Assembly (NCBI GenBank): GCA_964473055.1
Contig: CAYYOE010000001.1
Coordinates: 1 to 43,324 of the forward strand
Origin: an uncultured Rhodobacterales bacterium
GTDB taxonomy: Bacteria > Pseudomonadota > Alphaproteobacteria > Rhodobacterales > Rhodobacteraceae
Length of the DNA stretch: 43,324 nucleotides
Direction of reading: 5' to 3'
This document shows, one piece after another, positions 6,765 to 22,683 of this stretch (its first letter is position 1; each line of letters starts with the position of its first letter). The translations under genes and the position numbers were made by a program. Under the pieces are notes generated by a model. It ran no database searches. It was not told where the DNA came from and saw nothing but the letters and a program-made list of their open reading frames with translations.

Positions 6765-6791
6765 GGCGCCCGTGCAGGTGGCACGGGCGCC
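6765..6791. other. Perfect 11-bp-stem hairpin between tctC and tctA (GGCGCCCGTGC-aggtg-GCACGGGCGCC)
   Basis: Read directly from the sequence. It has no U-tract, so it is more likely an intercistronic mRNA stabiliser or attenuator than a full terminator. Confidence 0.5.
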
Positions 6792-6823
6792 AAGGTCTAC
6801 CCCGGCGATCCGGGTCGGCAGCG

Positions 6824-7774
6824 CTATTGCTGCACGCTTGCCAGCGTGTCGCGCACCACCTCGAGGGTCGCATCATAGATCTCCTGCACGCCGTCCGCGC
6901 GTGAGATCGGGCGGGCGTCCACCCGGGCCTGCGCGGCCAGTTCCTGCCCACGCTCGCTGGCATAGGCAGCTGCGATCCCTTCGGACAGCATCTCGACGAT
7001 TTCGTCCGGCACTTCGGCGGTGGCGAAGATCGTGTACCAGACCGGCATCACCACATCGTGGCCGAGTTCGGCCAGGGTGGGCGTGTCGGGCAGGCTGGGC
7101 ACGCGCTCGGCCGAGGCGACGGCGAGCGGCATCACGTCACCGGCCTCGTAGGCCGAGGCGATGGTGGTGGGCGTGGTCACCGCAACCGGAACGGTGCCGC
7201 CAAGAAGGAACTGGAGCGTCTCGCCACCGCCCGAGGTGGGCACCTGGTTAGTGGTAAAGCCCGCCAGTTCCTGCAGACGCAAAAGCGGCAGATGGCTGGA
7301 GCTCAGATAGGTGCCATGGGTGATCGGCACGCCGCCCGGGTTGGCCATTGCCGCAGCTATGAAGCCTTCGACATCGTCGAAGGGCGCATCGGACCGGGCG
7401 ACGAAGGTGGGCGCGATCTCGGTCACCTGCACCAGTGGCACCCAGTCCTCGGGGCCGTAGGGTGTGTCTTCAAGAAGCGGCAGAGTGATCAGCGGGCCAT
7501 AGTCCGAGATGATCAGCGTGTAGCCATCGCCGCCGTTCTGCAGAACGAAACTCGCAGAATCGAGCCCGCCGGCGCCGGGCATGTTCACCACCTCGACCCG
7601 CTGACCGAGATGCTCTTCTCCGACCGCGGCCAGAATGCGCGCGGCGATGTCGATGCCGCCGCCGGCACCATAGGGGGTCACCACGCGGATCGGACCGTCC
7701 GAGGGGAAATCGGCCGCCGCTGCACCGGCCACCAGCCCCAGGGCGGCCGCGCATCCAAGAACTCTCGTTTTCAT
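6824..7774 (-). CDS. tctC: Tripartite tricarboxylate transporter substrate-binding protein (TctC/Bug family)
   Basis: MKTRVLGCAAALGLVAGAAAADFPSDGPIRVVTPYGAGGGIDIAARIL... is a signal peptide plus the Bug-family motif (P...GG..D...R). The start was trimmed to 7774, which has a GGGAGAG Shine-Dalgarno upstream. Confidence 0.9.
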   Translation of the reverse strand: MKTRVLGCAAALGLVAGAAAADFPSDGPIRVVTPYGAGGGIDIAARILAAVGEEHLGQRVEVVNMPGAGGLDSASFVLQNGGDGYTLIISDYGPLITLPLLEDTPYGPEDWVPLVQVTEIAPTFVARSDAPFDDVEGFIAAAMANPGGVPITHGTYLSSSHLPLLRLQELAGFTTNQVPTSGGGETLQFLLGGTVPVAVTTPTTIASAYEAGDVMPLAVASAERVPSLPDTPTLAELGHDVVMPVWYTIFATAEVPDEIVEMLSEGIAAAYASERGQELAAQARVDARPISRADGVQEIYDATLEVVRDTLASVQQ

Positions 7775-8375
7775 TGCATCTCTCCCTCGATTGTCTTCCG
7801 GGTGCGTTGTCGGTTTGCGACTTGTTCGCCCTACGCACACTTGTTCACTATTGGCGCAACCCGGCGCGAGGTCAAGGAAAAGCCCATTGCTGCCGCATCC
7901 CGGATGGGCACGCGGCACTCGGTAGATTGCCCCATCACTTCAATGATCTTGGCGGCTTTCGCTCCACCGATGGAGCCGTTCCGGCAGGCGCGCGACTTCT
8001 GGACCCGGCCGGGCCTTGTGCCCCGGAAGTATTCGAACGGTGGCAAGCCGGGGCTCTGCCCCCTGAGGACTGGACCGCTTGAAGCTGGAGTTTTCCGCTA
8101 CATGTCCCTTGAGACCCTCGCACGAGTCACCGAAAATCCAATCGCCAGGCTGCCCGCCGTGCCGACCCGATCAGTTTCGAACCTCTCCGAGGGTCGGCGC
8201 TCCTGCACAATCCGGCGGGACACTACCTCGGGCAAGTCCACGCTATGTCGTCGGGGAGCGACAGCATCATCAGAGCTATCACGGTGCAGTCACAATTCCT
8301 GACTATCCCTCAAGAACCTTGAAAGCGCGTCAGCGCACCACTATGCATGCCGGACTGACGAGCCATGTGAGTTCC

Positions 8376-8981
8376 ATGACCAAAGCCACGTTCCCGCTCA
8401 AGCCATCGTCTCGGATCACCCACCACGGCGCACGTCTGCGCCATGCCCGGCTGATGAAGGGCTTCACGCTGCGCCAGTTGGCCGAGATCGTGGATTGTTC
8501 AGAGAGCATGATTTCGAAACTCGAGAACAGCCGCCTGTCGCCGTCCCTGGCCATGTTGCACCGGCTTGCCGATGCTCTGGAGACGACGGTTCCCGATCTC
8601 CTGATCCTTGGCAGCAATGCCGACGAGCCGCCAGTTACCGTCTTTCCGCCGGGCCGTTTCGACAGGGTTCCGTCCGAGGAAGACACCGATGGCAAGCTGG
8701 TCTGGTTCGACCGGATCCTGCCGTTCGACCGCAACGGCCTGCTGCAGCTGCAGATACTGCACCTGCTGCCGGGGGCCGAACAGCCTCGGTTCCTGCGCCA
8801 CGAGGGCGAGGAGTTCATCTTCATCCTGGATGGCACGCTGGACGTGATCATCGAGGAAGAGGTCCACGCGGTGCCCGCCGGGGGCGCGATCTACTTCAAG
8901 TCGACCCTGGATCACCGGTACGGCAACTCCGGCGATACCGTCGTCCGGGCACTCTGGGTCAACACGCCGCCGACGATGTAG
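8376..8981 (+). CDS. XRE-family HTH plus cupin-domain transcriptional regulator
   Basis: GARLRHARLMKGFTLRQLAEIVDCSESMISKLENSRLSPSLAMLHRLADALETTV is an HTH_3 domain. The C-terminal part (HEGEEFIFILDGTLDVIIEEEVHAVPAGGAIYFKSTLDHRY) is a cupin fold. The start is ambiguous between ATG 8343 and ATG 8376. Confidence 0.85.
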   Translation: MTKATFPLKPSSRITHHGARLRHARLMKGFTLRQLAEIVDCSESMISKLENSRLSPSLAMLHRLADALETTVPDLLILGSNADEPPVTVFPPGRFDRVPSEEDTDGKLVWFDRILPFDRNGLLQLQILHLLPGAEQPRFLRHEGEEFIFILDGTLDVIIEEEVHAVPAGGAIYFKSTLDHRYGNSGDTVVRALWVNTPPTM

Positions 8982-11286
8982 GGGCGGCGGCGTTTTCGAC
9001 AGGTCCGCGCTTGGCCGCCGTGCGGATCGCCGTCCAGACCGCAAGGGGCGTTGCGGGCATCTCCACATGCTCGACCCCGAGCGGCGCCAGGGCATCGGCC
9101 ACCGCGGACGCAAGGCAGGGCAGCGCGCCCACGGTCCCGGCCTCGCCCGCGCCCTTGGCGCCGAGGGCATTGGCCGCCGTGGACGTCGGAACGGACAGCA
9201 CCGAGAACATCGGCAAGTCCGCCGCGCGCGGCATCGTGTAGTCCATGAAGGACCCCGTCAGGGGACTGCCCGACGCAGGGTCTGTCCGGATCGCCTCGGC
9301 CAGGGCCTGCCCGATCCCCTGGGCGATTCCGCCATGGATCTGCCCGTGGGCAAGGAGCGGATTGACCACCCTGCCAAGGTCCTCGGCAGCGAGGTAGCGC
9401 AGGATCGCTGTTTCGCCGGTCTCGGGGTCGATCTCGACCTCGGCGATGTGGCATCCGTTCGGAAAAGTCGCTGCAGGCGTGGATTGCCAGCGCGAAGCGG
9501 TCAGGTGCAGGCCGCGGTCACGGACAAGGTCGAGGGGCGCGATGGTCACGTTGGTCAAGGAGGCGCGGAACAAGCCGTCCTCCAACGCGACGTCCTCGGC
9601 AGGGACCCCCAGCACAAGCGCGGCCTCGGTCCGCAGTTGCGCGGCCACATCCTGCGCTGCGGCCAGCAGAGCGCTGCCCGCTGCCGCGACCGAGCGCGAC
9701 CCGAAGGTGCCGGTGCCGCGGTCGACCGCTCCGGTGTCGCCCGCGATCAGGGTGATCGCGCCGGGGTCCATCCCGAGCGCCGAGGCCGCGATCTGCGCGA
9801 AGGTCGTGCGGTGCCCCTGCCCGGCGTCGCCGGTCCCCAGCCGAAGGGTGCAGCCGTGGGGCGTCAGGTCCACCTGCGCGAATTCGGGGGCCGGGGCAGC
9901 TGCAGGGCCGCCTGCGATCTCGATCGTGCAGGCCAGCCCGAAGCCCCGCAGCCGCCCCCGCGCCGCCGAACCTGCGCGACGCGCGGCAAATCCGGGCCAG
10001 TCCGCGGCGGCAAGCGCGCGGTCCAGAAGTCCGGGAAAATCGCCGCTGTCGTAGGTGAAGCCCAGCGGGGTGGTGTGCGGCAGGTCGACAGGGCGCAGCA
10101 TGTTCCGCCGCCGCAGGTCGACCCGGTCGAACCCCAGACTGGCAGCGGCGATGTCGATCATCCGTTCGGTGATGTAGGCAGCCTCGGGCCGCCCCGCGCC
10201 GCGATAGGCGGCGACGGTCGGGGTGTTCAGGAACACGCCCTCGACGCCCGCATGCATGGCGGGAAAGTGGTAGACCCCGGCAAGCGAGGGCAGGTTGCCA
10301 TGGGCCGAATGCAGCGTGGCAGGCCCGACATGCGCGCCCATCGCGACCACCGCCTCGACCTTGAGGGCAAGGAAGCGCCCGTCGGCATCCAGCGCCAGTG
10401 TGGCATCCACGATCTGTTCGCGCGCCTGCGGGTCGGACAGGAACGCCTCGGACCGGGTGGCGATCCAGCGCACCGGCCGGCCAGTCAGGCGCGCGGCCGC
10501 CAGCACCACGGCCAGTTCGGGGGCCGGCGCGTTGCGCATCCCGAAGGACCCGCCGCAGTTTTCGGAGACGACGCGGACCGATCCCGGCGGACGGCCCATC
10601 AGCCGCGCCATCCCCTGCGCAAGCCCGTGCGGCGCCTGCGTGCCGGCCCACAAGATGTAGCCCGCCCCGTCCCATTCCCCAATTGCCCCGCGCGGTTCCA
10701 TCGTCGCGGCCGCCACCCGGCTGATCGTCAGGCGCCGCCGCACGACATGGGCCGCCCCTGCAAGGGCCGCCGCCACCGCCGCGGCATCGCCGATCTCGTG
10801 GCGGAAGGCGACATTGTCCGGGCAATCGGCCCAGACCGCGCGCGCCCCGCGCGCACGGGCCAGATCGACCGTGGCCGAGGCAGGCGCGATATCCACCTCG
10901 ACCGCCTCGGCCGCAAGCTGCGCGGCGGCTTGCGAGGTGGCCACAACGGCAAGAAGGGGTTGCCCGGCATGGTGCACCTCACCTTCGGCCAACGGCGGGA
11001 ACGGCGGAATGTGCACCCGGCCATCCACCGTCTGCGGCACCCGCGCCGGACCCAGCATCCCGACCCCCAGAGCGCGCAGGTCCGCCGCGTCGATCACCGC
11101 CAGCACCCCCGGCATCCCTGCCGCGCGGTCCCGGTCGATCCGCCGGATGCGTCCCGCAGCATGGTCCGACCGCAGGAAGACAAGCGCGGCGCAGCCCTCG
11201 GGCGCGGCGTCATCGGTAAACCGACCCCGACCGCGCAGCAGGGCGTCATCCTCGAACCGGGGCAGGAACCGGCCGATCAGCGTCAT
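8959..11286 (-). CDS. Xanthine dehydrogenase/CO dehydrogenase family molybdopterin-binding large subunit
   Basis: A 775-aa protein. The N-terminus MTLIGRFLPRFEDDALLRGRGRFTDD is the typical CoxL-like start, and the length and Gly-rich MoCo-binding segments fit the family. Its start overlaps the stop of the upstream hydrolase gene (ATGA at 11283..11286). Confidence 0.92.
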   Translation of the reverse strand: MTLIGRFLPRFEDDALLRGRGRFTDDAAPEGCAALVFLRSDHAAGRIRRIDRDRAAGMPGVLAVIDAADLRALGVGMLGPARVPQTVDGRVHIPPFPPLAEGEVHHAGQPLLAVVATSQAAAQLAAEAVEVDIAPASATVDLARARGARAVWADCPDNVAFRHEIGDAAAVAAALAGAAHVVRRRLTISRVAAATMEPRGAIGEWDGAGYILWAGTQAPHGLAQGMARLMGRPPGSVRVVSENCGGSFGMRNAPAPELAVVLAAARLTGRPVRWIATRSEAFLSDPQAREQIVDATLALDADGRFLALKVEAVVAMGAHVGPATLHSAHGNLPSLAGVYHFPAMHAGVEGVFLNTPTVAAYRGAGRPEAAYITERMIDIAAASLGFDRVDLRRRNMLRPVDLPHTTPLGFTYDSGDFPGLLDRALAAADWPGFAARRAGSAARGRLRGFGLACTIEIAGGPAAAPAPEFAQVDLTPHGCTLRLGTGDAGQGHRTTFAQIAASALGMDPGAITLIAGDTGAVDRGTGTFGSRSVAAAGSALLAAAQDVAAQLRTEAALVLGVPAEDVALEDGLFRASLTNVTIAPLDLVRDRGLHLTASRWQSTPAATFPNGCHIAEVEIDPETGETAILRYLAAEDLGRVVNPLLAHGQIHGGIAQGIGQALAEAIRTDPASGSPLTGSFMDYTMPRAADLPMFSVLSVPTSTAANALGAKGAGEAGTVGALPCLASAVADALAPLGVEHVEMPATPLAVWTAIRTAAKRGPVENAAAPTSSAAC

Positions 11287-11993
11287 TCGGCGGCGACTGC
11301 GGGGGACAGGGTGCCCAGATGCGCCAGGACCTCGTCCAGGTGCATGACGTCGGCGTATTTGTGGTGCAGGTCGAACAGGTTCATCTTGTGGACAAGCTCG
11401 TGCCGGTCATAGGTGCACTCTTCCACAAGGCTGACGTGCAAGCCACTGGAATGGGCGTCGACGCAGCTGGCCCGGACGCAGCCCGATGTGCTTTCGCCGC
11501 AGACAATGACGCTTTTCACGCCGAGGATGTTGAGGTGCGAGATCAGCGGCGTGCCCTGGAAGATCGAGGCACGCTGCTTGGGGATCAGGATGTCACCTTC
11601 TTGCGGTGCGAAGTCCGGCCAGATCTCGAAGTCCGAGGGATCGCGGCGCACGCCCTTGCGGTGCGTGGCGCCGACGCGGCGGGGCGCCGACTGGGGCCTT
11701 GTATCGCCGAAGCAGTAGAAGATCGGGATACCTGCCCCGCGCGCCGCGGCGATCAGCCGTTTCGTTGGCTCGATCGCCCGGTGGGCATAGAGGCCGCAGC
11801 TCGACGGATAGCTGTCCTGCAATTCGGCCGGGGGGCGCGACCCGCCCTGGTAGGCGAGGTTGTAGAGGTCGATCAGCAAGAGTGCGGGCGCGGGGCCGAC
11901 GAAGGTCTCGCGCCGGTAGGGGGCGTAGAGACGGATCAGATCCTCGGGCACGACATCCTTCCAGGCGTGGTCCTCGAAGAGGTCGGGGGTCAT
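11283..11993 (-). CDS. Isochorismatase-family cysteine hydrolase, N-carbamoylsarcosine-amidase-like (paralog 1)
   Basis: Catalytic D-K-C signature: LLLIDLYN, ILIPKQRASIFQGT, VIVCGESTSGCVRAS. The C-terminal LFDLHHKYADVMHLDEVLAHL block is shared with the other two paralogs. Confidence 0.9.
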   Translation of the reverse strand: MTPDLFEDHAWKDVVPEDLIRLYAPYRRETFVGPAPALLLIDLYNLAYQGGSRPPAELQDSYPSSCGLYAHRAIEPTKRLIAAARGAGIPIFYCFGDTRPQSAPRRVGATHRKGVRRDPSDFEIWPDFAPQEGDILIPKQRASIFQGTPLISHLNILGVKSVIVCGESTSGCVRASCVDAHSSGLHVSLVEECTYDRHELVHKMNLFDLHHKYADVMHLDEVLAHLGTLSPAVAAE

Positions 11994-12008
11994 GGCGTTC
12001 TCCTTCGG

Positions 12009-12509
12009 TCAGGGGCTGAGGGCAAGGACGGTCTCGGCGGCGAGGCCGGACAGGATCGGCACCGGCAGGCTGGCCAGCATGCGCAGAAGGACGAAGTGCC
12101 AGCCCATGATCGGCGCCTCGTAGGCGAGCGTCCGGTGCAACGCAAAGACCGACCAGCCGGCGATCAGGGCCACGATCTGCGGCGTGCCGGCGCCTGCATT
12201 GATAAAGACGAGCGCCAGCGGAAACGAGGTCATCGGTCCGCCGGGCATGATCCCGCCGACGACCGAGGCGACGACGATCCCCTGAAGGCCCGAGGCCGGG
12301 CCGATCACCGGCGTCAGCGCCTGCAGCGGCAAGGCGTGGATCAGGAAGGCGGTGGCGACCAGCGCGAGCGGCAGGCGGATTATCAGCGCGCGGCCCTGGT
12401 CGCGCGCACCGCTGGCCGCCTGTGCCAGCCCGTCCCGCCCCTCGCGTCGCCAGACGACCCAGGCGGCGGCGAGGACCAACGCCCAGATCAGAAGCGTGGC
12501 CGCGATCAT
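12009..12509 (-). CDS. Small integral membrane protein, half-size putative permease subunit (paralog A)
   Basis: Only the C-terminal 166 codons of ORF 12009..12980 look real (MIAATLLIWALVLAAAWVVW...). It is hydrophobic with about five segments and carries the motif GGIMPGGPMTSFPL. Its ATG at 12509 overlaps the stop of the upstream paralog (ATGA). Confidence 0.7.
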   Translation of the reverse strand: MIAATLLIWALVLAAAWVVWRREGRDGLAQAASGARDQGRALIIRLPLALVATAFLIHALPLQALTPVIGPASGLQGIVVASVVGGIMPGGPMTSFPLALVFINAGAGTPQIVALIAGWSVFALHRTLAYEAPIMGWHFVLLRMLASLPVPILSGLAAETVLALSP

Positions 12510-13069
12510 TCTGCCGCCCCCCGCCGCAGCGCGAGCCGGGGCGAGCGCACGAGCCGGCGTGCCAGAAGGCCCACGAGGATCGGCATCGGCAGGCTGACCA
12601 GCACCCGGATCAGGGTCAGGTCCGCCCCCATCAGCGGCAGTTCCCAGACGATGATGCGATTGATCCCGATCAGCGCCCATGCGGCAAGGAAGGCCATCAA
12701 CGTGCCCGCGTCCGCCCCCGCGATCCAGAGCGCATGGACCAGAGGGAACGAGGTGAAGGGCCCGCCTGGCGTGATGGCGCCGAAGACCGAGGCGAGAATA
12801 AGCCCCCGCATCCCCGATCCTGCACCCAGCGTGCGGGCCACTCGGTCGCGCCCCACAAGACGCGACAGCAGGGCGCCCAGCAGCAACCCCGCCACCAGCG
12901 GCGGGATCACCAGAAGGATCATACCCGCCGCCTCGCGCAGGGCGGTACCGATCAGCTCGGCCCCGCCGATGCGCCAGCACCCGACCGCCCCGCCAGTGGC
13001 GAGGACGGCGAACACCGCCTCGCTGCGGCCGAAGCGCGGGCCGCGGGGGCGCTGCCCGGCTGCGCTCAC
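12506..13069 (-). CDS. Small integral membrane protein, half-size putative permease subunit (paralog B)
   Basis: It aligns along its length with paralog A (GAITPGGPFTSFPL versus GGIMPGGPMTSFPL). I infer a GTG start at 13069 that overlaps the stop of the upstream hydrolase (GTGA), which restores the N-terminal TM helix AVFAVLATGGAVGCW. Confidence 0.65.
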   Translation of the reverse strand: MSAAGQRPRGPRFGRSEAVFAVLATGGAVGCWRIGGAELIGTALREAAGMILLVIPPLVAGLLLGALLSRLVGRDRVARTLGAGSGMRGLILASVFGAITPGGPFTSFPLVHALWIAGADAGTLMAFLAAWALIGINRIIVWELPLMGADLTLIRVLVSLPMPILVGLLARRLVRSPRLALRRGAAE

Positions 13070-13827
13070 TCGGCCGCCATCATGCCTGCGCCCGATGGCA
13101 GGTCGAACATGCCCTGGCTCAGCGTGGCCAGATGGTCGAGCACCTCGGACGAGTGATAGACGTTGGCGTACTTCGCGTGCATGTCGCACAGGTTGATCGC
13201 ATGGCTCGCCTGCGACCGGTCAAAGCAGCCGTCCTCGACCACCGTCACCCGGAAGTTCAGCGAGAAGGCGTCAAGCACGGTCGCCCGCACGCAGCCCGAT
13301 GTCGTGGTGCCGGTAACGATCACGCTGTCGCAGCCCAGCAGTTGCAGGTAGCTGTGCAAGGGCGTGCCGGCAAAGCCCGAGGGCTTCTGCTTCAGGATCA
13401 CCAGGTCGCGCGGGCCGGGCGCGATGGCGTCGACGATCTCGTTGCCATCGCGGCCGTCGCTGGTGAGGATCGGCTTGCGCTCTTCCTGGCGGCGGCTGTT
13501 CTTCCAGGTCCAGGACCCGCTGTCCCAGTTGTCGTGGCGGCGCGTGCCGGTGGTGTAGATCACCGGAATGCCCTTGCCGCGGCAGGTCATGATCAGCTTC
13601 TGCAGGACAGGCATAGCTTCCCAGGCATCCTCGCCGCAGGAGGTGCGCCATTTCTGGATCGAGTCGAGGATCGGCTTCGATTCCTCGTCGCAGAAGGCGT
13701 AGTTCACGTCGATGATCAGCAGCGCGGGGCGCTTGCCCCATTCGGCCGTAGCGCCAAAGCCCGAGGCTGCGAAAACAGCCTTGTCGCGCTCGGTCAGGTA
13801 GGAGTCCCATACGCGTTCGGTGGTCAT
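13066..13827 (-). CDS. Isochorismatase-family cysteine hydrolase, N-carbamoylsarcosine-amidase-like (paralog 2)
   Basis: LLIIDVNYAF, GIPVIYTTG, VILKQKPSGFAGTPL, VIVTGTTTSGCVRAT and LCDMHAKYANVYHSSEVLDHL. The block order matches my recollection of Arthrobacter N-carbamoylsarcosine amidase. Confidence 0.9.
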   Translation of the reverse strand: MTTERVWDSYLTERDKAVFAASGFGATAEWGKRPALLIIDVNYAFCDEESKPILDSIQKWRTSCGEDAWEAMPVLQKLIMTCRGKGIPVIYTTGTRRHDNWDSGSWTWKNSRRQEERKPILTSDGRDGNEIVDAIAPGPRDLVILKQKPSGFAGTPLHSYLQLLGCDSVIVTGTTTSGCVRATVLDAFSLNFRVTVVEDGCFDRSQASHAINLCDMHAKYANVYHSSEVLDHLATLSQGMFDLPSGAGMMAAE

Positions 13828-13843
13828 GTGTCAGATTCCTTCT

Positions 13844-15076
13844 TCAGGGGTTGCGGCGGGAAATCACAAGGGTCGAAAGGCCCAGCATCAGGGCGAAGAA
13901 TACCAGCAGGGCTGCGTTGACGAACAACCCCCCGGACTGGCCGATGGCAAAGGCGTCGATCACCACGCCGATCGAAATCGGGCCGATCAGGTAGCCCAGG
14001 TCGCCTGCGAAGCGCATGGCGCCCATGGCCGGGCCATGGTGATCAGGCGGCGACAGTTCGATCGAATAGGCCCCCACGGCGGGGCCGCTGACCCCGCTCG
14101 CCGCCCCCATCGCGACCATGGCCGCGGTCAGGGTGGCCATGCTGGGCGCAAGGACACACCAGACGAGACAGAACGCGGTGGCCAGAAGCGACGCCACGAT
14201 CAGCCCCGGCCGCGGGACACGTTCGACCAGCCAGGCCGCCAGCGGCAGCACCGCAAGCGTGGCAAGGGCGGACAGGGTGATGGCAAGGCCGATCTGGTCG
14301 GGCCCCGCGCCGAAGCGTTCGTCTGCCATCAGCGGGATCATCTGCCATTGCGCGGCGACACGGGTCATGAAGACCCCGAAGTTGACCATCAGGATGCTGA
14401 GGAAGGGCAGCGCGAGGATCAGCGCGAGGGGGACACGGTGGCCCTGTGTCCCCTCGGGACGGGACGGGGCCGGGGCATCGCGGAACATCACCCAGGCGAC
14501 AAGCGCGGTTGCGGCCCCGATCACCCCGGCGGCCATGAACGGACCCGAAGGCCCGGCCAGCCCGGCGGCCAGCCCGCCTGCCGCCGGACCGAACGCCGCG
14601 CCCACCAGCATCGCGCCCTGGAACAGCGACATCATCTTGCCCCGGCTGCGACGGTCGCTGTGCCGGGCCACATAGATGGTGGTCGCGGTCATGTAGAGAC
14701 CCGAGCCCACCCCCTGGACCGTCCGGCCGAGCAGCAGCAGCCAGTATTCCTCCGCCATGGCGCCAACGGCCGATCCCAGCGCACACAGCAGCGGCCCGCC
14801 CCACAACAGCACCCGCAATCCTACCCGGTCGGACAGGATGCCCGCCGGCATGTCGGCCGCCAGCCTTCCAACAGCGAACAGGGTGATCATCAGCCCGATC
14901 TGCCATCCCGGAATGCCGAAACCCTGCGCGTAGACCGCCATCACCGGGGTCAACATGCCGAACATCGTCATGTGCGCGGCCACGGTGACCAGGATCACCG
15001 GGAACGCGGGGGTGTCGCGGATCACCTCGCGCCAGGTGGCGGGGGTTGCCACGTCAAGTGTCTGCATCGCGGCCAT
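13844..15076 (-). CDS. MFS transporter
   Basis: A 12-TM-like profile with the MFS loop motif GRLADMPAGILSDRVGLR. The start was trimmed to MAAMQTLD (15076), 4 nt after the upstream MFS stop. Confidence 0.9.
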   Translation of the reverse strand: MAAMQTLDVATPATWREVIRDTPAFPVILVTVAAHMTMFGMLTPVMAVYAQGFGIPGWQIGLMITLFAVGRLAADMPAGILSDRVGLRVLLWGGPLLCALGSAVGAMAEEYWLLLLGRTVQGVGSGLYMTATTIYVARHSDRRSRGKMMSLFQGAMLVGAAFGPAAGGLAAGLAGPSGPFMAAGVIGAATALVAWVMFRDAPAPSRPEGTQGHRVPLALILALPFLSILMVNFGVFMTRVAAQWQMIPLMADERFGAGPDQIGLAITLSALATLAVLPLAAWLVERVPRPGLIVASLLATAFCLVWCVLAPSMATLTAAMVAMGAASGVSGPAVGAYSIELSPPDHHGPAMGAMRFAGDLGYLIGPISIGVVIDAFAIGQSGGLFVNAALLVFFALMLGLSTLVISRRNP

Positions 15077-15080
15077 TGCC

Positions 15081-16328
15081 CTATTCCGCCGGGCCGCGCG
15101 CGCCGGTGCCCCAAGTCGCAAGCTTCCAGGACCGGCGCGTCCAGATGGCGAAGCCGACAACCGTGCCCACCAGCAGCATCCCGCCGCCGTAGAAGGCCGC
15201 CGTCAGCCCGAACAACCCGCCCGCCGCACCAAACAGCGCGGGCGACAGGATCTGCGAGAATCGGTTGGACAGCAGACGCAGACCCATCAACTTGCCGCGC
15301 CGCTCCTCTCCGACGGCATCGACCATGATCATGATGCTGACGGGCAGGTTCACCCCGACTGCGCCCCCCAGAACAATAGCGGTGGCGATCATTGCGGCGG
15401 GCTCGGCAACCACCAGCGGGGTCAGCACGACGCAGACGGCCGCGATGGTGCCGGCGGTCGTCAGGATCGGTTCCAGCGGGAAGCGCTTCATCACGATGGT
15501 GAGGCCGAAGCGGGCCAGCATCCCGGCCAACCCCTTGATCGACACGATCACTGCGATCAGCATGGTCGCATAGCCGTTCTGCGCGAGATACAGCGGCAGA
15601 AAGCTCATGTAGAGCGCCTGAATGAACATCACGAGGAAGGTGGCCGTCAGCCCGAACTGCACCGGCCGCAGCCGCGCGAGGTCGATCCCGCCGCGATAGC
15701 TGGACAGAACGCCCGAGGGGCGGAACACGTCGCGCGCGTTGATGCCTTCCTTTGCTTCCGGGCGCGGATAGAGCCGGGCGAACCAGGCGATCGCCAGCAT
15801 GAAGATCACGGTCGCGACCGTCGAGGCGACAAAGGCCGCGTGGTAGCCTGCGGCCGGAACGGGAAACGCCGAAGCAATGGCGCCACCGATCAGCGGCCCG
15901 AGCATCCCGCCGCCCGACATCCACATCGAATACCGCTTGATCGCGTCATTGCGGCGTTCGCGATCCCCATGCGACACCAGAACCTGCAAGGACGAGGCCA
16001 TGATGATGATGCAGGCCCCAAGCAGCACCTGCGACAGCGCCAGCAGCACCAGCCCCTCGGCAAAGACCATGCACAGAAGACCGCCCAGCAGGAACCATGA
16101 CCCCCAGAACAGCATCCGCATCGGACCGACCGTGTCGATCAGCTGGCCCACGGGCATGGCAATGAAGATCGGCAGGACCGCCTTCAACGTGATCATCATC
16201 CCGATGGTGAAGGTCGAGGCGCCCAGTTCATGGGCGTAGAGGGCGAAAAAGGGCTGTACGAGGCCGGTGATCGTGAAGAACACCCCCCCGCCGACGACCC
16301 CGAAGCGCGCGAAGCGGTCAGATTGCAT
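15081..16328 (-). CDS. MFS transporter
   Basis: A 415-aa polytopic protein with MFS-like repeats (PVGQLIDTVGPMRM). Its start overlaps the 3' end of the ABC ATPase gene by 11 nt. Confidence 0.9.
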   Translation of the reverse strand: MQSDRFARFGVVGGGVFFTITGLVQPFFALYAHELGASTFTIGMMITLKAVLPIFIAMPVGQLIDTVGPMRMLFWGSWFLLGGLLCMVFAEGLVLLALSQVLLGACIIIMASSLQVLVSHGDRERRNDAIKRYSMWMSGGGMLGPLIGGAIASAFPVPAAGYHAAFVASTVATVIFMLAIAWFARLYPRPEAKEGINARDVFRPSGVLSSYRGGIDLARLRPVQFGLTATFLVMFIQALYMSFLPLYLAQNGYATMLIAVIVSIKGLAGMLARFGLTIVMKRFPLEPILTTAGTIAAVCVVLTPLVVAEPAAMIATAIVLGGAVGVNLPVSIMIMVDAVGEERRGKLMGLRLLSNRFSQILSPALFGAAGGLFGLTAAFYGGGMLLVGTVVGFAIWTRRSWKLATWGTGARGPAE

Positions 16329-18294
16329 GGTGGCAGGCGGCCTCTCGGGTCTTGCGATGCTTGAACAGCACGGGCTTTTCGGTGCGGCAGATTTCGGTCG
16401 CCACGGGACAGCGACTGGCGAATGCGCAGCCCGGCGGCAGGTTCAGCGGGCTGGGCAGGTCGCCCTGCAACAGGCGGATCTCGCGCCGGGCCTCGAGCGC
16501 GGGATCGGGGATCGGCACGGCCTGCACCAGCGCGCGCGTGTAGGGGTGCAGCGGGGTGTCGAACACCTCGTCCGCGGGGCCGTATTCCACCACCTCGCCC
16601 AGGTACATCACCGCGATCCGGTCGGCGATGTGGCGCACGGTCAGCAGATCGTGGCTGATGAAGACGAAGCTGACGCCAAGGTCACGCTTCAGTTGGGCCA
16701 GCAGGTTGATGATCTGTGCCCGCACTGACACATCCAGCGCCGATGTCGGTTCGTCCGCGACCACGACCGAGGGGCTGAGCGCAAGCGCGCGGGCGACAGC
16801 GACACGCTGGCGCTGGCCGCCGGACAGCTGGTTTGGGTAACGCACAAGGTGGGCCACCTCCAGCCCGACCTGTTCGACAAGGGTCTCGACCCGGGACGCC
16901 CGTTCCGCGCGGGTGCCCCAGCCGCGCACGACAAGCGGTTCCTCGATGATCGCACGGATCGTCATCTTGGGGTTGAAGGACGAGAACGGGTCCTGAAACA
17001 CCATTTGCGCCATGCCATCGACGAAGATCTCGCCTCCGGTGGCGCGTTCCAGCCCCAGAAGCAGCCGGGCGACGGTACTCTTGCCGCAGCCGGATTCGCC
17101 GACGATGCCCAGCGTCTCGCCCTTCAGGACGCGCAGGCTGACCCCGTTCACGGCCTTGACCACCGTCCGGCGCGACGGGCTGAACAGGGATGCAGACTCG
17201 AAGTGCTTTACCAGGTTGTTGACCTCGACCACGACGCGGGATTCGACCTGATGGGGCTGCATATTCGGACGCACATCGGCCACCTGCGGCAGTGGCGCCG
17301 GGCCAAGACCACCTGCCACCCGGCAGGCCGCGGCGTGACCAGGGCCGACCGGGACCAGCGTGGGAACGTCGCATCGGCAGACGTCCTCGGCGACGGCGCA
17401 ACGGCTCATGAAGGCGCAGCCGGGGGGGGGCGTGCGCATGTCGGGCGGTGTCCCCGTGATCTGTGGCAGCGCAACAGCCCGAGGCGCGCCGGGGCTGGGG
17501 ATCGTGCGCAAAAGGCTCTGGGTGTATGGGTGGCTGGGACTGGCGAAGATGTCGCCCACCGGCCCGAATTCGACGATCCGGCCAGCGTACATCACGGCGA
17601 CCTTGTGGGCGAACCGGGCGACAAGGCCCAGATCGTGCGTGATGAACAGCATCGCCGCGCCGGTTTCGGCTGTCAGTGTCTTCAGCACCTCGACGATCTG
17701 TGCCTGAATCGTGACATCCAGCGCGGTGGTCGGTTCGTCGGCAATCACAAGTTGCGGCATGCTCGACAGCGCCATGGCGATCATGACCCGCTGCCGCATG
17801 CCGCCCGACATCTCGAACGGATAGGCATCGATCCGTCGCTCGGGTTCCGGGATACCGACCTTGCCGAGCCAGCGGATCGCCTCGGCCCTGGCGGCTTCGC
17901 GTGTCAGTCCGAGATTGCGCATGATCGGCGCGATCATCTGGCGCGACACCCGCATGACCGGATCGAGCGAGGCCATTGGATCCTGGAAGACGGTGCCGAC
18001 CTCGCGTCCGCGAACCGTGTTCAACTGGCGTTCCGACAGGGTGCAAAGATCGCGGCCCGCCAGGAAGACCTGGCCGCCGGTCACGCGCCCCGGGTGGGCC
18101 AGCAGCCGCAACAGCGACATGGCCATCGCGCTTTTGCCCGAGCCGCTTTCGCCCACGACAGCGACGCGTTCCCCGGCCGCAACGCTAAAGGACACGCCGT
18201 TCACGGCCTGCACCGTGCCCGACCCCGTACGGAATTCCGTATGCAGGTCGCGGACATCCAGAAGTGTGGTTTGCATGGCGGATTGAAAGGTCAT
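16318..18294 (-). CDS. Peptide/opine/nickel-type ABC transporter ATP-binding protein, fused double ATPase (DppD-DppF-like)
   Basis: Two full ABC cassettes are present, each with a Walker A (GESGSGKS and GESGCGKS), a signature (MSGGMRQRV and LSGGQRQRV), a Walker B and an oligopeptide-type C-terminal extension. The start was trimmed to MTFQSAMQ (18294). Confidence 0.93.
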
Positions 18295-18307
18295 CTGCGG
18301 CCCCCGT

Positions 18308-19204
18308 TCAGCGCTGTGACCGGGGGTCGAGCGCCTCGCGCACCCCGTCGGATAGGAAATGCAGGCTGATCGCAATCATCAGGATCACCGCGCCCGGCAG
18401 CGTCGAGATCCACCACGCGTTCTCGAGGTAGGTCTGTCCATCGCGGATGATATTCCCAAGTGACGGCGCTGGCGGCATGATCCCCAGCCCGAGGAACGAC
18501 AGGCTGGCCTCGACCAGGATCGCGTTCGCCGCCGCGATGCTGGCCGCCACCAGCATCGGTGCGATCGAATTCGGCAGGATGTGGCGCGACATCATCCAGC
18601 CGGTCGAGGCCCGGACTGTGCGGGCCGCGTCGATGAAGGACCGCGTGCGCAAGGTCAGAACCTGCGACCGCTGCAGCCGGATGAAGCGCGGAACGTCGGC
18701 AAGCGCGATGGCAAGGATCACCGGCACAATTCCCGTCCCCACCACCGCAACCAGCCCGATCGCCAGCAGAAGCGACGGAAAGGCCAGGAAGATGTCCACG
18801 ACGGTCATAACCATCCGGTCGATGACACCGCCGAAGAACCCCGCGATCGTCCCCAGGATCATTCCCATGGTCAGTGCGATGGTCGCGACCGAGAACCCCA
18901 CGAAAAGCGACACCTTCACGCCTTCAAGCGTGCGCGCCAACACGTCGCGGCCCATCCGGTCGGTTCCGAACGGGTGCGCAAGCGACGGGGCCTGCATCAT
19001 GGCGCGCAGATTGGTTTCGAGCGGCCCCTGCAACGGCAGGAGCGGTGCCAGCGCCACCAGCGCAAGGATCGCCAGCAGGATCGCCAGCGCGATGCGGGTC
19101 TTGCGGTTCGACTGTACCAAGGCGCGCTGCCCCGATGCGACGAACGCCGAAACGCCGCGCAGCGAAGATGCCGGAGGATTCAGGGTTTCGAGGGCCATGG
19201 CCAC
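18308..19204 (-). CDS. ABC transporter permease (DppC/OppC-like)
   Basis: BPD_transp_1-type permease with the EAA-like loop SFIDAARTVRASTGWMMSRHILPN. Confidence 0.93.
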   Translation of the reverse strand: MAMALETLNPPASSLRGVSAFVASGQRALVQSNRKTRIALAILLAILALVALAPLLPLQGPLETNLRAMMQAPSLAHPFGTDRMGRDVLARTLEGVKVSLFVGFSVATIALTMGMILGTIAGFFGGVIDRMVMTVVDIFLAFPSLLLAIGLVAVVGTGIVPVILAIALADVPRFIRLQRSQVLTLRTRSFIDAARTVRASTGWMMSRHILPNSIAPMLVAASIAAANAILVEASLSFLGLGIMPPAPSLGNIIRDGQTYLENAWWISTLPGAVILMIAISLHFLSDGVREALDPRSQR

Positions 19205-19210
19205 CTCCCG

Positions 19211-20158
19211 TCAGAATTTCACGCGCGGATCGAGCGCGCGGTAGATGAGGTCGGTGGCGAAGTTGATCGTGACGAACAGCAGCGCGTAGAAGACGATCAG
19301 CGTCTGCACCATCTGGTAATCGCGGCTGTTGATGCCGTTGATAAGCAGGTTGCCGATACCCGGGATCGTGAAGATGAACTCGACGATCACAGTGCCGTTC
19401 AGCAGGTTTCCGAAGCTCAGCCCGATGACCGTGACGATGGGCAGGGCGGCGTTCTTCAAGGCGTGGCGGAACAGCACGCGGAACTCGGACCAGCCAAGCG
19501 CGCGGGCGGTGCGGACGTAGTCCTCGTTCAGGATCTCGAGGACCGAAGTGCGGGTGATCCGCGCCATGGTGGCCACCTGTGTCACCGACAACACAAGGAC
19601 CGGCAGAGCGATCCGCGACAGGAAGGCGGCGGGGTCGTCGAAGCTGACCGCGCCGCTGGCGGGAAACCACCCCAACGTCAGCGAGAACAGCAGCAGGAAC
19701 ACCAGGGCCGTCCAGAACGACGGCATGAGATCGACCACCATTGCCGATCCGGTGATGAGGTTGTCGAGCCCGGTGCGGCCCTTGTGCGCCATGAAGGCCG
19801 CCACCGTGCCCAGCGGAATGGCCACAACGACGGTCAGGATGATGGTCAGGACCGCGATCGACAGGGTGACCGGCAGTGCCCGCAGGATCAGGTCGGCAAC
19901 CGGCAGGCGCGTGGTGATCGTCGTGCCGAAGTCGAAGGTAACGAGGTTGCCGAGATAGGTGATGTACTGCGCGAAGAGCGGCTCGTTCAGGCCCATCTCC
20001 TCGCGCAGGCGTTCCAGCGCTTCGCCCGAAAGGGTGTCGCCGGCCATGGCCGAAGCCGCATCCCCCGGGATGAACCGAAGGGTGAAGAATACCAGCGTCA
20101 CCACGCCGAGAATGGTGATGGCAAGCTGGGCGGTCTTCTTAAGGCTGTAGTCGAGCAT
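19211..20158 (-). CDS. ABC transporter permease (DppB/OppB-like)
   Basis: MLDYSLKKTAQLAITILGVVTLVFFTLRFIPGD is a typical DppB N-terminus, and the EAA loop DYVRTARALGWSEFRVLFRHALKNA is present. Confidence 0.93.
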   Translation of the reverse strand: MLDYSLKKTAQLAITILGVVTLVFFTLRFIPGDAASAMAGDTLSGEALERLREEMGLNEPLFAQYITYLGNLVTFDFGTTITTRLPVADLILRALPVTLSIAVLTIILTVVVAIPLGTVAAFMAHKGRTGLDNLITGSAMVVDLMPSFWTALVFLLLFSLTLGWFPASGAVSFDDPAAFLSRIALPVLVLSVTQVATMARITRTSVLEILNEDYVRTARALGWSEFRVLFRHALKNAALPIVTVIGLSFGNLLNGTVIVEFIFTIPGIGNLLINGINSRDYQMVQTLIVFYALLFVTINFATDLIYRALDPRVKF

Positions 20159-20176
20159 GGCCGACTTCTCCCCGGG

Positions 20177-21706
20177 TCAGGCGACGGTCAGATCGACTTC
20201 GAAGAAGTTGACCTGTCCGAGGTAGTTGGGCTGAACACCCGCCACCGATGCCTTGCCCGGCCAGAACACGTTGCTGGCATAGCTTGGGAGATACGGCAGG
20301 TCGGTCATCACGATCTGCTGCACCTTCTCGTACATCCCGAAGGCCTTTCCCGCGTCGGGCTCGGCCCGTGCGGCCTCGATCAGCGCAGTGACCTCGGGGT
20401 TGTCGTATCGCGCCCCGTTCAGGCCGCCGGGAACCGTGTTCGACGGATGCAGGTAGCTGAACAGGATCATGTCGGGGTTTACGGCCGGCAACAGGCGGGT
20501 TGCCATCTGGAACTCCCCCGCGTTCCGGCGCTGGTTGAAGGTGGGCGTATCCACAAGTTCCATCTGCATGTCGACGCCGACCTGCGCGAGGAAATCGATC
20601 TCGAACTGCTGGATCTCGGTGACACCCTGGGCTGAGGTGCCGAGGTGCTTGAACGACAGTCCCCAGCCATATCCCGCGTCGGCGAGAAGGGCCTTGGCCT
20701 TGTCAGGGTCATAGGCGTACTTCGGCGTGTTGTCCGAGTAGACGTTCATCCAGGGCAGAAGGATCGAATAGGCGGCCTGCGTCAGGCTGGGCGAGATCGC
20801 GTTGCAGATGGTGTCGTAGTCGATGGCATAGGCGATCGCCTGGCGGACCCGAACATCGGCAAAAGGCGCATATTCGGGGTTCAACACCTTCAGCGCGACC
20901 GCATAGTTCTGCACGCTGTTCATCACGAAGCCTTCGGCCTTCAAGGTCTGGAGGTTCTCCTCGCGGTTCGACCGCATCACCAGATCGACCTCGCCGTTGC
21001 GCAGGGCGATGGTCGCGGTCTGCTCGTCCTTGATGATGTTGAAGACGATGGTCTCGATCGGCGCGGGGCCGCGGTAGTAGTCCTCGTGCCGCTTGAGCAC
21101 GATGCGCGAGTTGACGTCGATTTCGGCCAGATAGTACGGCCCGGTCCCGAGCGGCTTCCAGCGGACCTGATCCCCGGCCTCCTCGATCGCCCTTCGGCTG
21201 ACGATCTGGCCCTGGTGATAATTCGCCACGGTATGCAGGAAGTTGCCATTCGGCGCCGAAAGCTCGATGACCAGCGTGTAGGGATCGGGCGCTTCCATCT
21301 TCGCGATCCCGGCCAGTTCGGACGCATAGGGCGATGCGGTCGCGGGGTCGAGGATGCGGTTGTAGCTGTAGATCACGTCCTCGGCGGTGAAGTCGCCATA
21401 GCCGTTCTGGAACTTCACGCCTTCGCGCAGCCGGAATGTCCATGTCTTGTTGTCCGACGTCTCCCACGATGTGGCGAGATCCGGCCCGATTTCGCCCGAT
21501 TGGCTGTCGTAAGTCGTCAGGCCCGAGAAGATGTTGAACGCGATATTCTCGTTCTCGATCCGGAAGATGTTCGCCGGATCGAACCCCGCGGGGTCGTCGT
21601 AGAATCGAACGGTGAGAAGCTTGCCGTCGCTTGCCCGCGCCATCTGGGGCACAAGGGCAGTTGCGGCAAGCAAGGCATTGAAATGGCGTCTGTTCAGCAG
21701 GGGCAT
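20177..21706 (-). CDS. ABC transporter substrate-binding protein, family 5 (peptide/nickel/opine type)
   Basis: A 509-aa protein with a signal peptide (MPLLNRRHFNALLAATALVPQMARA) and the SBP_bac_5 layout (LATSWETSDNKTWTFRLREGVKFQNG). Confidence 0.93.
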   Translation of the reverse strand: MPLLNRRHFNALLAATALVPQMARASDGKLLTVRFYDDPAGFDPANIFRIENENIAFNIFSGLTTYDSQSGEIGPDLATSWETSDNKTWTFRLREGVKFQNGYGDFTAEDVIYSYNRILDPATASPYASELAGIAKMEAPDPYTLVIELSAPNGNFLHTVANYHQGQIVSRRAIEEAGDQVRWKPLGTGPYYLAEIDVNSRIVLKRHEDYYRGPAPIETIVFNIIKDEQTATIALRNGEVDLVMRSNREENLQTLKAEGFVMNSVQNYAVALKVLNPEYAPFADVRVRQAIAYAIDYDTICNAISPSLTQAAYSILLPWMNVYSDNTPKYAYDPDKAKALLADAGYGWGLSFKHLGTSAQGVTEIQQFEIDFLAQVGVDMQMELVDTPTFNQRRNAGEFQMATRLLPAVNPDMILFSYLHPSNTVPGGLNGARYDNPEVTALIEAARAEPDAGKAFGMYEKVQQIVMTDLPYLPSYASNVFWPGKASVAGVQPNYLGQVNFFEVDLTVA

Positions 21707-21779
21707 GTCGCGACTCCTGGGTGGCAGTGGGATCGGACCGGAGCCAACGACGGCTCCGGTGTTCGCATTGGGGGCGGGG

Positions 21780-22505
21780 TCAGCCGGCCTTGCGCAGCGG
21801 CGCGGCTGCGGTGGCGCCAGTCACCTCGCGCAGGTAGGTCTTCGCCATTTCCAGGTCGACGACATCGGCGTACTTCTGGTGCATGTCGTAGAGGTTCATG
21901 AAGTGCGATGCCTCGGTGCGGTCGAACACGCACTCGGACACCACCCCCATGCGGAAGCGGTGCGTTGCTCCGTCGACGACCGACGCGCGAACGCAGCCCG
22001 ACGTGGTCTCGCCACAGACGATCAGGGTGTCGACCCCGAGCGAGGTGAGGTGGAACGCCAGCGGTGTGCCCTGAAAGCCCGATGGTGCTGTCTTCTCGAT
22101 CACCACTTCGCCGTCGATCGGGGCCACCTCGGACACGATCTCCATGCCCTTGGCCTGCATCTCAGGCGAAAGCTTGGACGGCCCACGATGCCGGTGGACC
22201 CAGGGCTTGATTCCGGTCTTCATTCCCTTGACGTGGACGACCGGGACGCCGCAGGCGCGCGCGACCGCCAGTAGTTCGGCGATCTTGTCGACGGCAGCCC
22301 AGCCTTCCAATCCGGTCGAAGACGACCAGGTCTTCATTGATTCGAAGATCGGCTCGCGCTTCAGCCCAAGCACGCTGTAATAGATGTCGATCAACAAGAG
22401 CGCGGGCTTCTTGCCGAAGCCGAACAGATCCTTCTTGCCCCACTGCTCGTCATGCAGGCGGTCGCGTTCGCTGAGGTAGGGTTCCCATCCGTATTCCGTC
22501 ATCAT
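21780..22505 (-). CDS. Isochorismatase-family cysteine hydrolase, N-carbamoylsarcosine-amidase-like (paralog 3); first gene of the long operon
   Basis: LLLIDIYYSV, VVIEKTAPSGFQGTPL, LIVCGETTSGCVRAS and LYDMHQKYADVVDLEMAKTYL. The start was trimmed to MMTEYGWEPYL (22505), with GGAG 7 nt upstream. Confidence 0.9.
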   Translation of the reverse strand: MMTEYGWEPYLSERDRLHDEQWGKKDLFGFGKKPALLLIDIYYSVLGLKREPIFESMKTWSSSTGLEGWAAVDKIAELLAVARACGVPVVHVKGMKTGIKPWVHRHRGPSKLSPEMQAKGMEIVSEVAPIDGEVVIEKTAPSGFQGTPLAFHLTSLGVDTLIVCGETTSGCVRASVVDGATHRFRMGVVSECVFDRTEASHFMNLYDMHQKYADVVDLEMAKTYLREVTGATAAAPLRKAG

Positions 22506-22543: not shown

Positions 22544-22683
22544 GGGTCGACAGTGTGCCGGGGTTCGTCTGGTGTCTCGCAAGCGAAATGCACCCGTGGC
22601 CTTCCGCTCTGCTCCAATGCCAACGCCGCATTGACGGAAAATCAAGCGACTTGATCAGAAGTCGAGGCAGTTTCTTAAGCTGC

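Follow-up and report, generated by a model that had tools for sequence, protein, structure and literature searches.

A 43,324-nucleotide stretch of DNA from an uncultured Rhodobacterales bacterium (contig CAYYOE010000001.1; hereafter the window, taken from a 54-kb contig of a stromatolite metagenome) carries a twelve-gene operon for three predicted cysteine amidohydrolases, an ATP-binding cassette (ABC) importer, two major facilitator superfamily (MFS) carriers, a split ArsP-type permease and the large subunit of a xanthine dehydrogenase (XDH)-family molybdenum (Mo) enzyme. Our preferred interpretation, which we hold tentatively and with a little less than even confidence, is that the operon is a composite nitrogen scavenger whose three parallel uptake and hydrolysis cassettes serve several small carboxylated amides or ureides. 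The first cassette would consist of the amidase HydC and a Dpp-type, binding-protein-dependent ABC importer (with the carrier MFS1), and the second of the carrier MFS2 and the amidase HydA. The third would pair the split ArsP-type permease with the amidase HydB, after which this lineage carries an orphan CoxL-like Mo subunit. Together with a convergent gene for an XRE-cupin regulator, the twelve genes would form one conserved, self-contained regulon. Every component comes from a known family, and the novelty lies in the arrangement, with three transporter-amidase cassettes under one XRE-cupin operator, a fusion of an MFS carrier to an amidase in relatives, and a recurrent Mo large subunit that lacks partners.

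The features of the operon and its putative control elements, with product classes as predicted from sequence and domain matches, are the following.

21780..22505, minus strand: Hyd3 (ortholog group HydC), cysteine amidohydrolase of the type of N-carbamoylsarcosine amidase (CSHase) and NicF, 241 amino acids (aa); PF00857, 92.5 bits
20177..21706, minus strand: family-5 solute-binding protein of an ABC importer; PF00496 (SBP_bac_5), 289 bits
19211..20158, minus strand: ABC permease I; BPD_transp_1 and BPD_transp_1_N
18308..19198, minus strand: ABC permease II; BPD_transp_1, with the start taken from the contig gene call
16318..18294, minus strand: fused double ATPase of the DppD/DppF type; two ABC_tran and two oligo_HPY domains
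15081..16328, minus strand: MFS carrier 1 (MFS1); MFS_1, 121 bits; 11-nt overlap between its start and the stop of the ATPase gene
13844..15076, minus strand: MFS carrier 2 (MFS2), the partner of HydA; MFS_1, 178 bits
13066..13827, minus strand: Hyd2 (ortholog group HydA), CSHase/NicF-type cysteine amidohydrolase, 253 aa; PF00857, 110.7 bits
12506..13069, minus strand: split ArsP_1-type permease, half B; PF03773, 49 bits; a 4-nt overlap at each junction
12009..12509, minus strand: split ArsP_1-type permease, half A; weak Pfam match, 43% identity to half B
11283..11993, minus strand: Hyd1 (ortholog group HydB), CSHase/NicF-type cysteine amidohydrolase, 236 aa; PF00857, 95.3 bits
8959..11286, minus strand: CoxL-like molybdopterin-binding large subunit, 775 aa; Ald_Xan_dh_C, MoCoBD_1 and MoCoBD_2
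8343..8981, plus strand: regulator with an XRE-family helix-turn-helix and a cupin domain, convergent to the operon; HTH_3/HTH_31 and Cupin_2
22642..22654, no strand assigned: operator-like palindrome TCAAGCGACTTGA, which lies some 140 nt upstream of Hyd3, the first operon gene
8310..8322, no strand assigned: second palindrome copy TCAAGAACCTTGA, located 21 nt upstream of the regulator's called start

A first-pass annotation of this DNA had described twelve co-directional minus-strand genes at 8959-22505 with gaps of at most 73 nt. Our recomputed junctions, the Pfam assignments and the boundaries given by independent gene calls on the source contig agree with this order, strand and spacing. 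From Hyd3 to the Mo gene the junctions measure 73, 18, 12, 13, -11, 4, 16, -4, -4, 15 and -4 nt, the negative values being the four overlaps. The G+C content of the window is 62-73%, mainly 65-70%. Terminator-like hairpins inside the operon number 7, compared with 7.2 expected from shuffled sequence. Because four junctions overlap, terminator-like sites occur at the chance level and one palindrome lies upstream with none inside, a single regulated unit is plausible, and the genes might well be expressed as a single, translationally coupled transcript.

The unit reaches further than the twelve genes first proposed and includes the convergent XRE-cupin gene and the two operator-like palindromes. 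The 3′ ends of the Mo gene and the regulator gene overlap by 23 nt (8959-8981), and the open reading frames (ORFs) called in locus L009 of our collection likewise overlap by 23 nt. In every Rhodobacteraceae copy that covers that end (L007-L013, L091 and L092), the regulator occupies the same position, with 61-71% identity. The palindrome, TCAAG-N3-CTTGA, is the only stretch that stays conserved when the upstream regions of seven Rhodobacteraceae operon copies are aligned (alignment A3), and the operon-side copy is found at the equivalent place in L007 and L009-L012. It occurs twice in the window, compared with 0.31 occurrences expected at up to one mismatch, and never inside the operon. A second copy lies just past the regulator gene in L007 (15526-15538), and in L013 a copy is found on the far side of the Mo gene. 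A hairpin at 22647-22664 was considered as a terminator and is better read as the conserved operator palindrome. The simplest reading of this pattern is that the XRE-cupin protein is an autoregulated repressor or activator that controls the operon from one upstream site, and the presence of a single upstream operator-like site supports the view that the operon is one unit.

All three hydrolases match the isochorismatase domain PF00857 far over its cutoff of 27 bits. As claimed in the first-pass annotation, each keeps the contexts of an Asp-Lys-Cys triad, which read LLLID or LLIID, K-x3-S-x-F and TSGCVRA. When Hyd2 is aligned to Ami of P. putida S16, its triad is D40, K146 and C179. The residues D42, K139 and C172 are invariant in the alignment of HydB orthologs (A2), and Hyd3 carries the contexts LLLID, EKTAPSGF and TTSGCVRA. 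The triad of NicF is Asp29, Lys117 and Cys150, with an oxyanion hole made up of the main-chain N atoms of Thr146 and Cys150 (PMC5806882). An Asp-Arg pair is located exactly 25 residues past the Cys in Hyd1, Hyd2, Hyd3 and Ami.

The solved relatives that score best for all three proteins are CSHase (1nba, 26st), NicF (3ot4/3uao) and Ami (4l07), with E values from 1e-16 to 1e-27. The best match of Hyd1 is CSHase (26st, 3e-22), closely followed by NicF (5e-22), that of Hyd2 is Ami (5e-26) and then CSHase (about 1e-21), and that of Hyd3 is NicF (3ot4, 8e-27). RutB (about 1e-11), EntB and PhzD (about 1e-7) and nicotinamidases (1e-4 to 1e-6) were scored for Hyd2 only, and BiuH matches Hyd1 and Hyd2 at 1e-6 to 1e-12. 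Neither EntB/PhzD nor nicotinamidases are among the structure matches of Hyd1 or Hyd3 at E <= 1e-8. The earlier placement of the proteins in the CSHase/maleamate-type subfamily, away from EntB and PhzD, therefore holds, since CSHase, NicF and Ami score far better. Judged by their sequences, the three are cysteine amidohydrolases of the CSHase/maleamate-amidase branch and not true isochorismatases. A C-terminal block that had been proposed to unite the three as paralogs survives in part: L.D.H.KYA.V is present in all of them, but EVL.HL is found only in Hyd1 and Hyd2. Moreover, the shared block is common to Ami, and so it marks the subfamily rather than these paralogs.

Hyd1, Hyd2 and Hyd3 are about 40% identical to one another and 63-81% identical to their own counterparts in other genera. 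They therefore represent three old ortholog groups, which we call HydA (Hyd2), HydB (Hyd1) and HydC (Hyd3). HydC is 70-85% identical in 14 other loci, and HydA matches 6,532 proteins at E <= 1e-20, the best 120 of which are 67-97% identical. All genes of the operon are under purifying selection, and the amidases are the most strongly constrained, with ratios of nonsynonymous to synonymous substitution rates (dN/dS) of 0.04-0.15.

The C-termini of two groups show a further regularity. In HydA, a conserved F(D/E)LP(S/T)G.GM segment past the catalytic domain is followed by an extreme C-terminus that reads -AAE in 65 and -(V/I)WY in 37 of the best 120 matches. Most of the aligned HydB sequences (A2) also end in -AAE.

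An alignment scan with HydA, using one genome per species, yielded 80 loci, and the scans with HydA and HydB each gave at least 600 matches. Neighborhoods were surveyed by tblastn, with counts limited to the 54 HydA loci that have at least 5 kb of sequence on both sides. The unit recurs in at least five other Rhodobacteraceae: Marivita, HLUCCA08, Roseicyclus mahoneyensis DSM 16097 and one Rhodobacterales metagenome-assembled genome (MAG) have all twelve genes in the same order plus the XRE-cupin regulator, and a Maritimibacter MAG has them in part. The operon is also present on two metagenome contigs, one of which (L091) is identical to the HLUCCA08 locus. Its hosts are salt-loving Rhodobacteraceae. 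The flanking genes differ in other Rhodobacteraceae, and thus the conserved unit extends from Hyd3 through the Mo gene and includes the regulator.

Other versions of the cluster are shorter or are arranged differently. In two Rhodobacteraceae loci, both the ArsP halves and the Mo gene are missing. Devosia and Pelagibacterium carry only HydC-ABC-MFS1-MFS2-HydA, with no HydB, and Neorhizobium carries HydC-ABC-MFS1-HydA-HydB. The order in Acuticoccus and Salinarimonas is ABC′-MFS2-HydA-HydA′-ArsP-ArsP-HydB, where ABC′ is a divergent ABC system and HydA′ is a duplicate of HydA, and Ottowia has MFS-HydA-HydA′. Loci L089 and L090 read MFS-Hyd-HydA-LysR-ArsP-ArsP-HydB-MoL and adjoin MoeA-like and molybdate-type ABC genes. 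Across the 54 loci, HydA is accompanied by an MFS2-like gene in 18 cases, by HydC in 13, by the orthologous ABC genes in 12, by HydB in 10, and by the ArsP halves and the Mo gene in 6 each. Neither of the other two amidase groups is nearby in 41-44 of these HydA loci or in 12 of the 14 HydB loci with the same flanking coverage. A metagenome scan anchored on HydB recovered mostly solitary HydB genes, and roughly half of the HydB loci (soil contigs) adjoin TctC- or NMT1-type binding proteins or oligopeptide ABC genes. The combination of genes in the operon, which had been regarded as unusual, is less so than it looks, being a concatenation of recurring two- to four-gene modules that are found separately elsewhere.

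Each amidase group has its own transporter neighbor. HydC directly precedes the ABC genes in every locus whose sequence covers that gene, and MFS1 co-occurs with the ABC genes in other genomes. The MFS2-like gene is located directly upstream of HydA wherever it was counted above. In five of the six Devosia/Pelagibacterium loci (L014, L015, L016, L017 and L019; about 8723-10774 in each), MFS2 and HydA form one in-frame ORF of about 680 codons. This natural MFS2::HydA fusion argues that the carrier and the amidase handle the same molecule or a substrate/product pair. In all loci with both ArsP halves, HydB comes next. Half B matches PF03773 (cutoff 32 bits) at profile positions 9-138 of 294, and half A scores 19 bits, which is under the cutoff. 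The 43% identity between the halves extends over 95 aa, and both match the N-terminal half of the profile.

The ABC system has the same component set as Dpp/Opp-type peptide/opine importers, and the set is complete: an SBP_bac_5 protein, two BPD_transp_1 permeases and ABC_tran/oligo_HPY ATPase domains. It differs from them in that the two ATPases are fused, an amidase gene comes before it and MFS carrier genes come after it. In addition, the family-5 binding protein is below all NCBIfam equivalog cutoffs (DppA, OppA, NikA and GsiB), and its best solved relatives reach merely 1e-48.

If the operon is indeed a composite scavenger, the imported compounds would be dicarboxylic half-amides, N-carbamoyl amino acids or peptide-like amides, whose nitrogen would be stripped off as ammonia. 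Substrates bearing a carboxylate are proposed because each amidase keeps the Asp-Arg motif 25 residues after the Cys. Each enzyme would use the Asp-Lys-Cys mechanism of CSHase and maleamate amidase, in which the Cys forms a thioester, NH3 (or carbamate) is released and the acyl-enzyme is hydrolyzed. The cupin regulator might sense one such compound and release the TCAAG-N3-CTTGA operators, and the Mo subunit might oxidize or hydroxylate the substrate or product of HydB. According to the Pfam assignments, the unit includes no carbon-skeleton or ring-cleavage enzyme, and so the deamidated acids would either enter general metabolism or leave the cell through the MFS or ArsP carriers. Since the operon holds only carriers, amidases and the Mo subunit, nitrogen scavenging is favored.

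Several observations count against this proposal. HydA orthologs of 66-70% identity occur in many unrelated contexts, including a beta-oxidation-like operon, a Rut-like cluster and metal-resistance surroundings, and context therefore does not pin down the substrate. On an S. meliloti plasmid, for example, a HydA-type gene is in a Rut-like context with genes for a luciferase-like monooxygenase, an alpha/beta hydrolase and an NMT1 protein. Contexts of this kind (Rut-like, RidA-containing or beta-oxidation-like) suggest that HydA acts downstream in the catabolism of nitrogen compounds, as an amidase of rather general use. One shared pathway would likewise bring HydA, HydB and HydC together repeatedly in shuffled order. 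No single substrate has experimental or orthology-based support, and none of the hydrolases reaches the NCBIfam equivalog cutoffs for RutB, BiuH or PncA (best scores 36-52 bits, compared with cutoffs of 174-378). The proposed preference for carboxylates depends on the Arg of the Asp-Arg pair acting as in CSHase and NicF, where it binds the substrate carboxylate. The upstream region of the operon has no sigma-54 type promoter and hence gives no hint of nitrogen control. MFS2 is closest to families of the drug:H+ antiporter type, although far below their cutoffs, and both the MFS and ArsP carriers could be exporters. Finally, our literature search found no paper that assigns this cluster to a pathway and nothing specific on the orphan CoxL, and the names of orthologs in databases and plasmid records are generic (e.g. 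'isochorismatase family protein').

The first-pass annotation had proposed instead that the cell imports one nitrogen-rich compound bearing several amide or ureido groups, which the three paralogs deamidate one step after another and which also undergoes one hydroxylation; in this case the extra carriers would move intermediates or products. Candidates for such a compound would be a tri-amide (N-acetylglutaminylglutamine amide or N-carbamoyl-glutamine amide) or an opine-like peptide. We consider this unlikely, even though the three amidase genes are co-located in shuffled order in several lineages (L003, L006, L011, L012, L020-L022, L027, L031, L093, L103 and L118), as is typical of shared pathways, and the whole operon is under one operator-like site. 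In Acuticoccus (L006, 13609-18320), AsnO-like, GNAT/ATP-grasp (Ngg-like) and M42 peptidase genes come after the cluster, and we take this set to be the biosynthesis genes for the tri-amide osmolyte N-acetylglutaminylglutamine amide (NAGGN). However, this adjacency is seen in one of about 20 cluster-bearing loci and is missing in the close relative L021, and we therefore rejected NAGGN catabolism as a general explanation. Devosia lacks HydB, and both L089 and Ottowia lack HydC and the ABC importer. Most HydA and HydB loci, as counted above, have neither of the other two groups. The three enzymes belong to distinct ortholog groups, each is paired with a carrier of its own (in one case by fusion), the cassettes occur separately or recombined elsewhere, the Mo gene is accessory, and enzymes for the carbon skeleton or for ring cleavage are missing from the unit. 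These features fit poorly with successive deamidations of one compound.

The product of the last gene had been called a Mo-hydroxylase. It is a full three-domain large subunit of the XDH family, but the operon encodes the large subunit only. The domains PF01315 (a/b hammerhead), PF02738 and PF20256 all score over their cutoffs, and the protein aligns over nearly its full length with CoxL (8uem, 2e-112), KdhL and QorL (E values from 2e-112 to 2e-92). Its best solved relatives include the large subunits of 6-hydroxypseudooxynicotine dehydrogenase and quinoline 2-oxidoreductase. No NCBIfam cutoff is reached, and the score for TIGR02416 (form I CO dehydrogenase) is 410 bits compared with a cutoff of 991. 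The active-site loop of form I CO dehydrogenase is AYRCSFR; the loop here reads AAYRGAGRPEA (AYRGAGR type), and the conserved C-terminal Glu is present in GAGEAG. The gene has a dN/dS of 0.15-0.36, which is above that of the amidases and indicates that it is under purifying selection rather than decaying. It is accessory to the cluster, being missing in most versions.

To our knowledge, every characterized Mo hydroxylase of the XDH family works with [2Fe-2S] and flavin adenine dinucleotide (FAD) subunits or domains. Form II CoxL-like and related enzymes (CoxLMS, QorLMS and KdhLMS) have the same three-domain architecture in their large subunits as the protein described here. In contrast to them, the partner genes are not nearby, and the large-subunit gene overlaps an amidase gene instead. 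Inspection of the window, and of those parts of the 54-kb contig that were read, revealed neither a CoxS ([2Fe-2S]) nor a CoxM (FAD) gene. A scan for the CoxS Cys motif across loci L001-L090 matched only L024 and L050, neither of which has an orthologous Mo gene, and at least 12 related loci have no Fe-S or FAD subunit genes within about 10 kb of the Mo gene.

Mo subunits in other lineages are orphans as well. Several Xanthobacteraceae loci (L043, L046, L054, L080 and L086) carry, in this order, an NMT1 binding protein, HydA, often an S-adenosylmethionine (SAM) methyltransferase, an orphan CoxL-like Mo subunit that is 46-47% identical to that of the window, RidA and a Fer4/CCG protein. This iron-sulfur protein could stand in as electron partner of the Mo subunit. 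The window also encodes a Fer4/CCG protein (1823-3346), which we rejected as a partner because it is not orthologous to the Xanthobacteraceae protein (29% identity over 124 aa) and because the flanks of the operon are not conserved. In Neorhizobium, a 50% identical Mo subunit adjoins a complete CoxL/S/M/G set, UbiD and a UbiX-type flavoprotein, and sharing of partners is thus possible. Roseivivax has a 52% identical Mo subunit in a cluster with TRAP, FAD-monooxygenase, Amdase-family and FAA-hydrolase genes.

These relationships bear on a second alternative, which we find somewhat less probable still than the single-compound route. The third cassette would be a route for heteroaromatic carboxamides such as nicotinamide or pyrazinamide, in which HydB cleaves the amide and the Mo subunit hydroxylates the N-heteroaromatic acid, with Fe-S and FAD subunits borrowed from an XDH-family enzyme encoded elsewhere. 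The HydB and Mo genes overlap by 4 nt, the pair recurs with the ArsP halves in L089/L090 beside the MoeA-like and molybdate-type ABC genes, and the best solved relatives of the Mo subunit include 6-hydroxypseudooxynicotine dehydrogenase and quinoline 2-oxidoreductase. The Mo subunits of about 50% identity in Roseivivax and Neorhizobium are in clusters of an aromatic or N-heterocycle type. However, the unit has no ring-hydroxylating, ring-cleaving, deformylase or isomerase genes, and HydB is nearer to CSHase and NicF than to nicotinamidases, with no PncA-type structure matched at E <= 1e-8. Moreover, HydB and the ArsP halves occur without the Mo gene in Acuticoccus, Salinarimonas and L103.

There is also a slim chance that the Mo protein represents an XDH-family lineage without dedicated [2Fe-2S] and FAD partners, which is re-oxidized by another acceptor and here works in fixed association with the split ArsP-type permease and a cysteine amidase. 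If this were true, it would constitute a new electron-transfer arrangement for the XDH family and a new two-step module that deamidates and then oxidizes. A lone Mo subunit that works without Fe-S and FAD components would change the textbook picture of the family.

A role in defense, detoxification or signal interference, in which the amidases would break open a toxic amide, lactam or lactone and the MFS and ArsP carriers would expel it or what is formed from it, is very improbable: HqiA, an isochorismatase-like, CSHase-related enzyme from hypersaline soil with acyl-homoserine lactonase activity (PMC5430456), provides a precedent, and MFS2 and the ArsP halves weakly match drug-efflux MFS families and efflux permeases (SaoE, SO_0444), respectively, but all these efflux-family matches are far under their cutoffs, the termini of HqiA, judged from its primers, are unlike those of the proteins described here, and the binding-protein-dependent ABC system, which is the best-conserved partner of HydC, is an importer.

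In our comparison with known systems, no described pathway fitted the operon. CSHase, NicF and Ami share with all three paralogs the PF00857 fold family, the Asp-Lys-Cys triad, the TSGCVRA nucleophile loop, the Asp-Arg pair 25 residues after the Cys and the C-terminal L.D...KY..V block. Similarity to Ami is moderate in the phmmer alignment, short of orthology, and HydA and HydB have extra N- and C-terminal segments, including the conserved -AAE end. The three known enzymes belong to the creatinine pathway (with creatinine deaminase and N-methylhydantoinase) or to nicotinate/nicotine pathways (with ring-cleavage genes), and none of those genes is present here.

RutB, BiuH and TrtA are likewise cysteine amidohydrolases of the same superfamily that free nitrogen from small ureido or amide compounds, and the triuret-to-biuret route uses paralogous enzymes in series. 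The HydA-type genes that occur elsewhere beside luciferase-like monooxygenase, RidA and alpha/beta-hydrolase genes recall the Rut system. However, the NCBIfam scores of the paralogs (36-52 bits) are far below the RutB and BiuH cutoffs (370-378), and so they are neither RutB nor BiuH, and the operon has no gene for RutA, cyanuric acid hydrolase or allophanate hydrolase. More broadly, NicC/NicX/NicD/NicE, creatinine deaminase, N-methylhydantoinase, RutA, cyanuric acid hydrolase and allophanate hydrolase are all missing from both the unit and the window. The lack of a match to a described pathway, which had been reported from the sequence, thus extends to the literature, and the signature genes of the nic, creatinine, Rut and biuret routes are not in the unit.

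A tricarballylate-utilization set is located directly upstream of the operon on the same strand (23111-27645) and comprises TcuB (TIGR02484, 332 bits), a TcuA-like FAD protein, a GntR/FCD regulator and PrpF. Two tripartite tricarboxylate transporter sets are encoded elsewhere in the window (4731-7918 and 31481-34851). The flanks of the operon, TctCAB on one side and TcuAB/GntR on the other, are not adjacent to it in other Rhodobacteraceae, and we therefore rejected TctCAB and TcuAB as parts of the unit. At about 34.8-35.0 kb (4319-4522 in L171), the second TctA gene is followed by a mobile-element remnant that encodes 67 aa of an IS66-family TnpB. Further along, genes for an extracytoplasmic function (ECF) sigma factor and an NrsF anti-sigma factor (37184-38385) divergently precede a bufferin-type cluster for a ribosomally synthesized and post-translationally modified peptide (38536-41083), which encodes a DUF2282/BufA1 precursor, an MbnB/TglH/ChrH-family enzyme, a DUF2063/HvfC protein and DoxX.

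Bacterial consumers have yet to be assigned to many of the small amides and ureides in the dissolved organic nitrogen of microbial mats, seawater and soil. HydA, with its 6,532 relatives, and HydB are strongly conserved families, neither of which has an assigned substrate, and the operon provides the richest known context for both. Its dedicated sensor-regulator and binding protein could be used to fish for ligands, and because at least one strain that carries it (Roseicyclus mahoneyensis DSM 16097) is in culture, the operon would be a tractable target.

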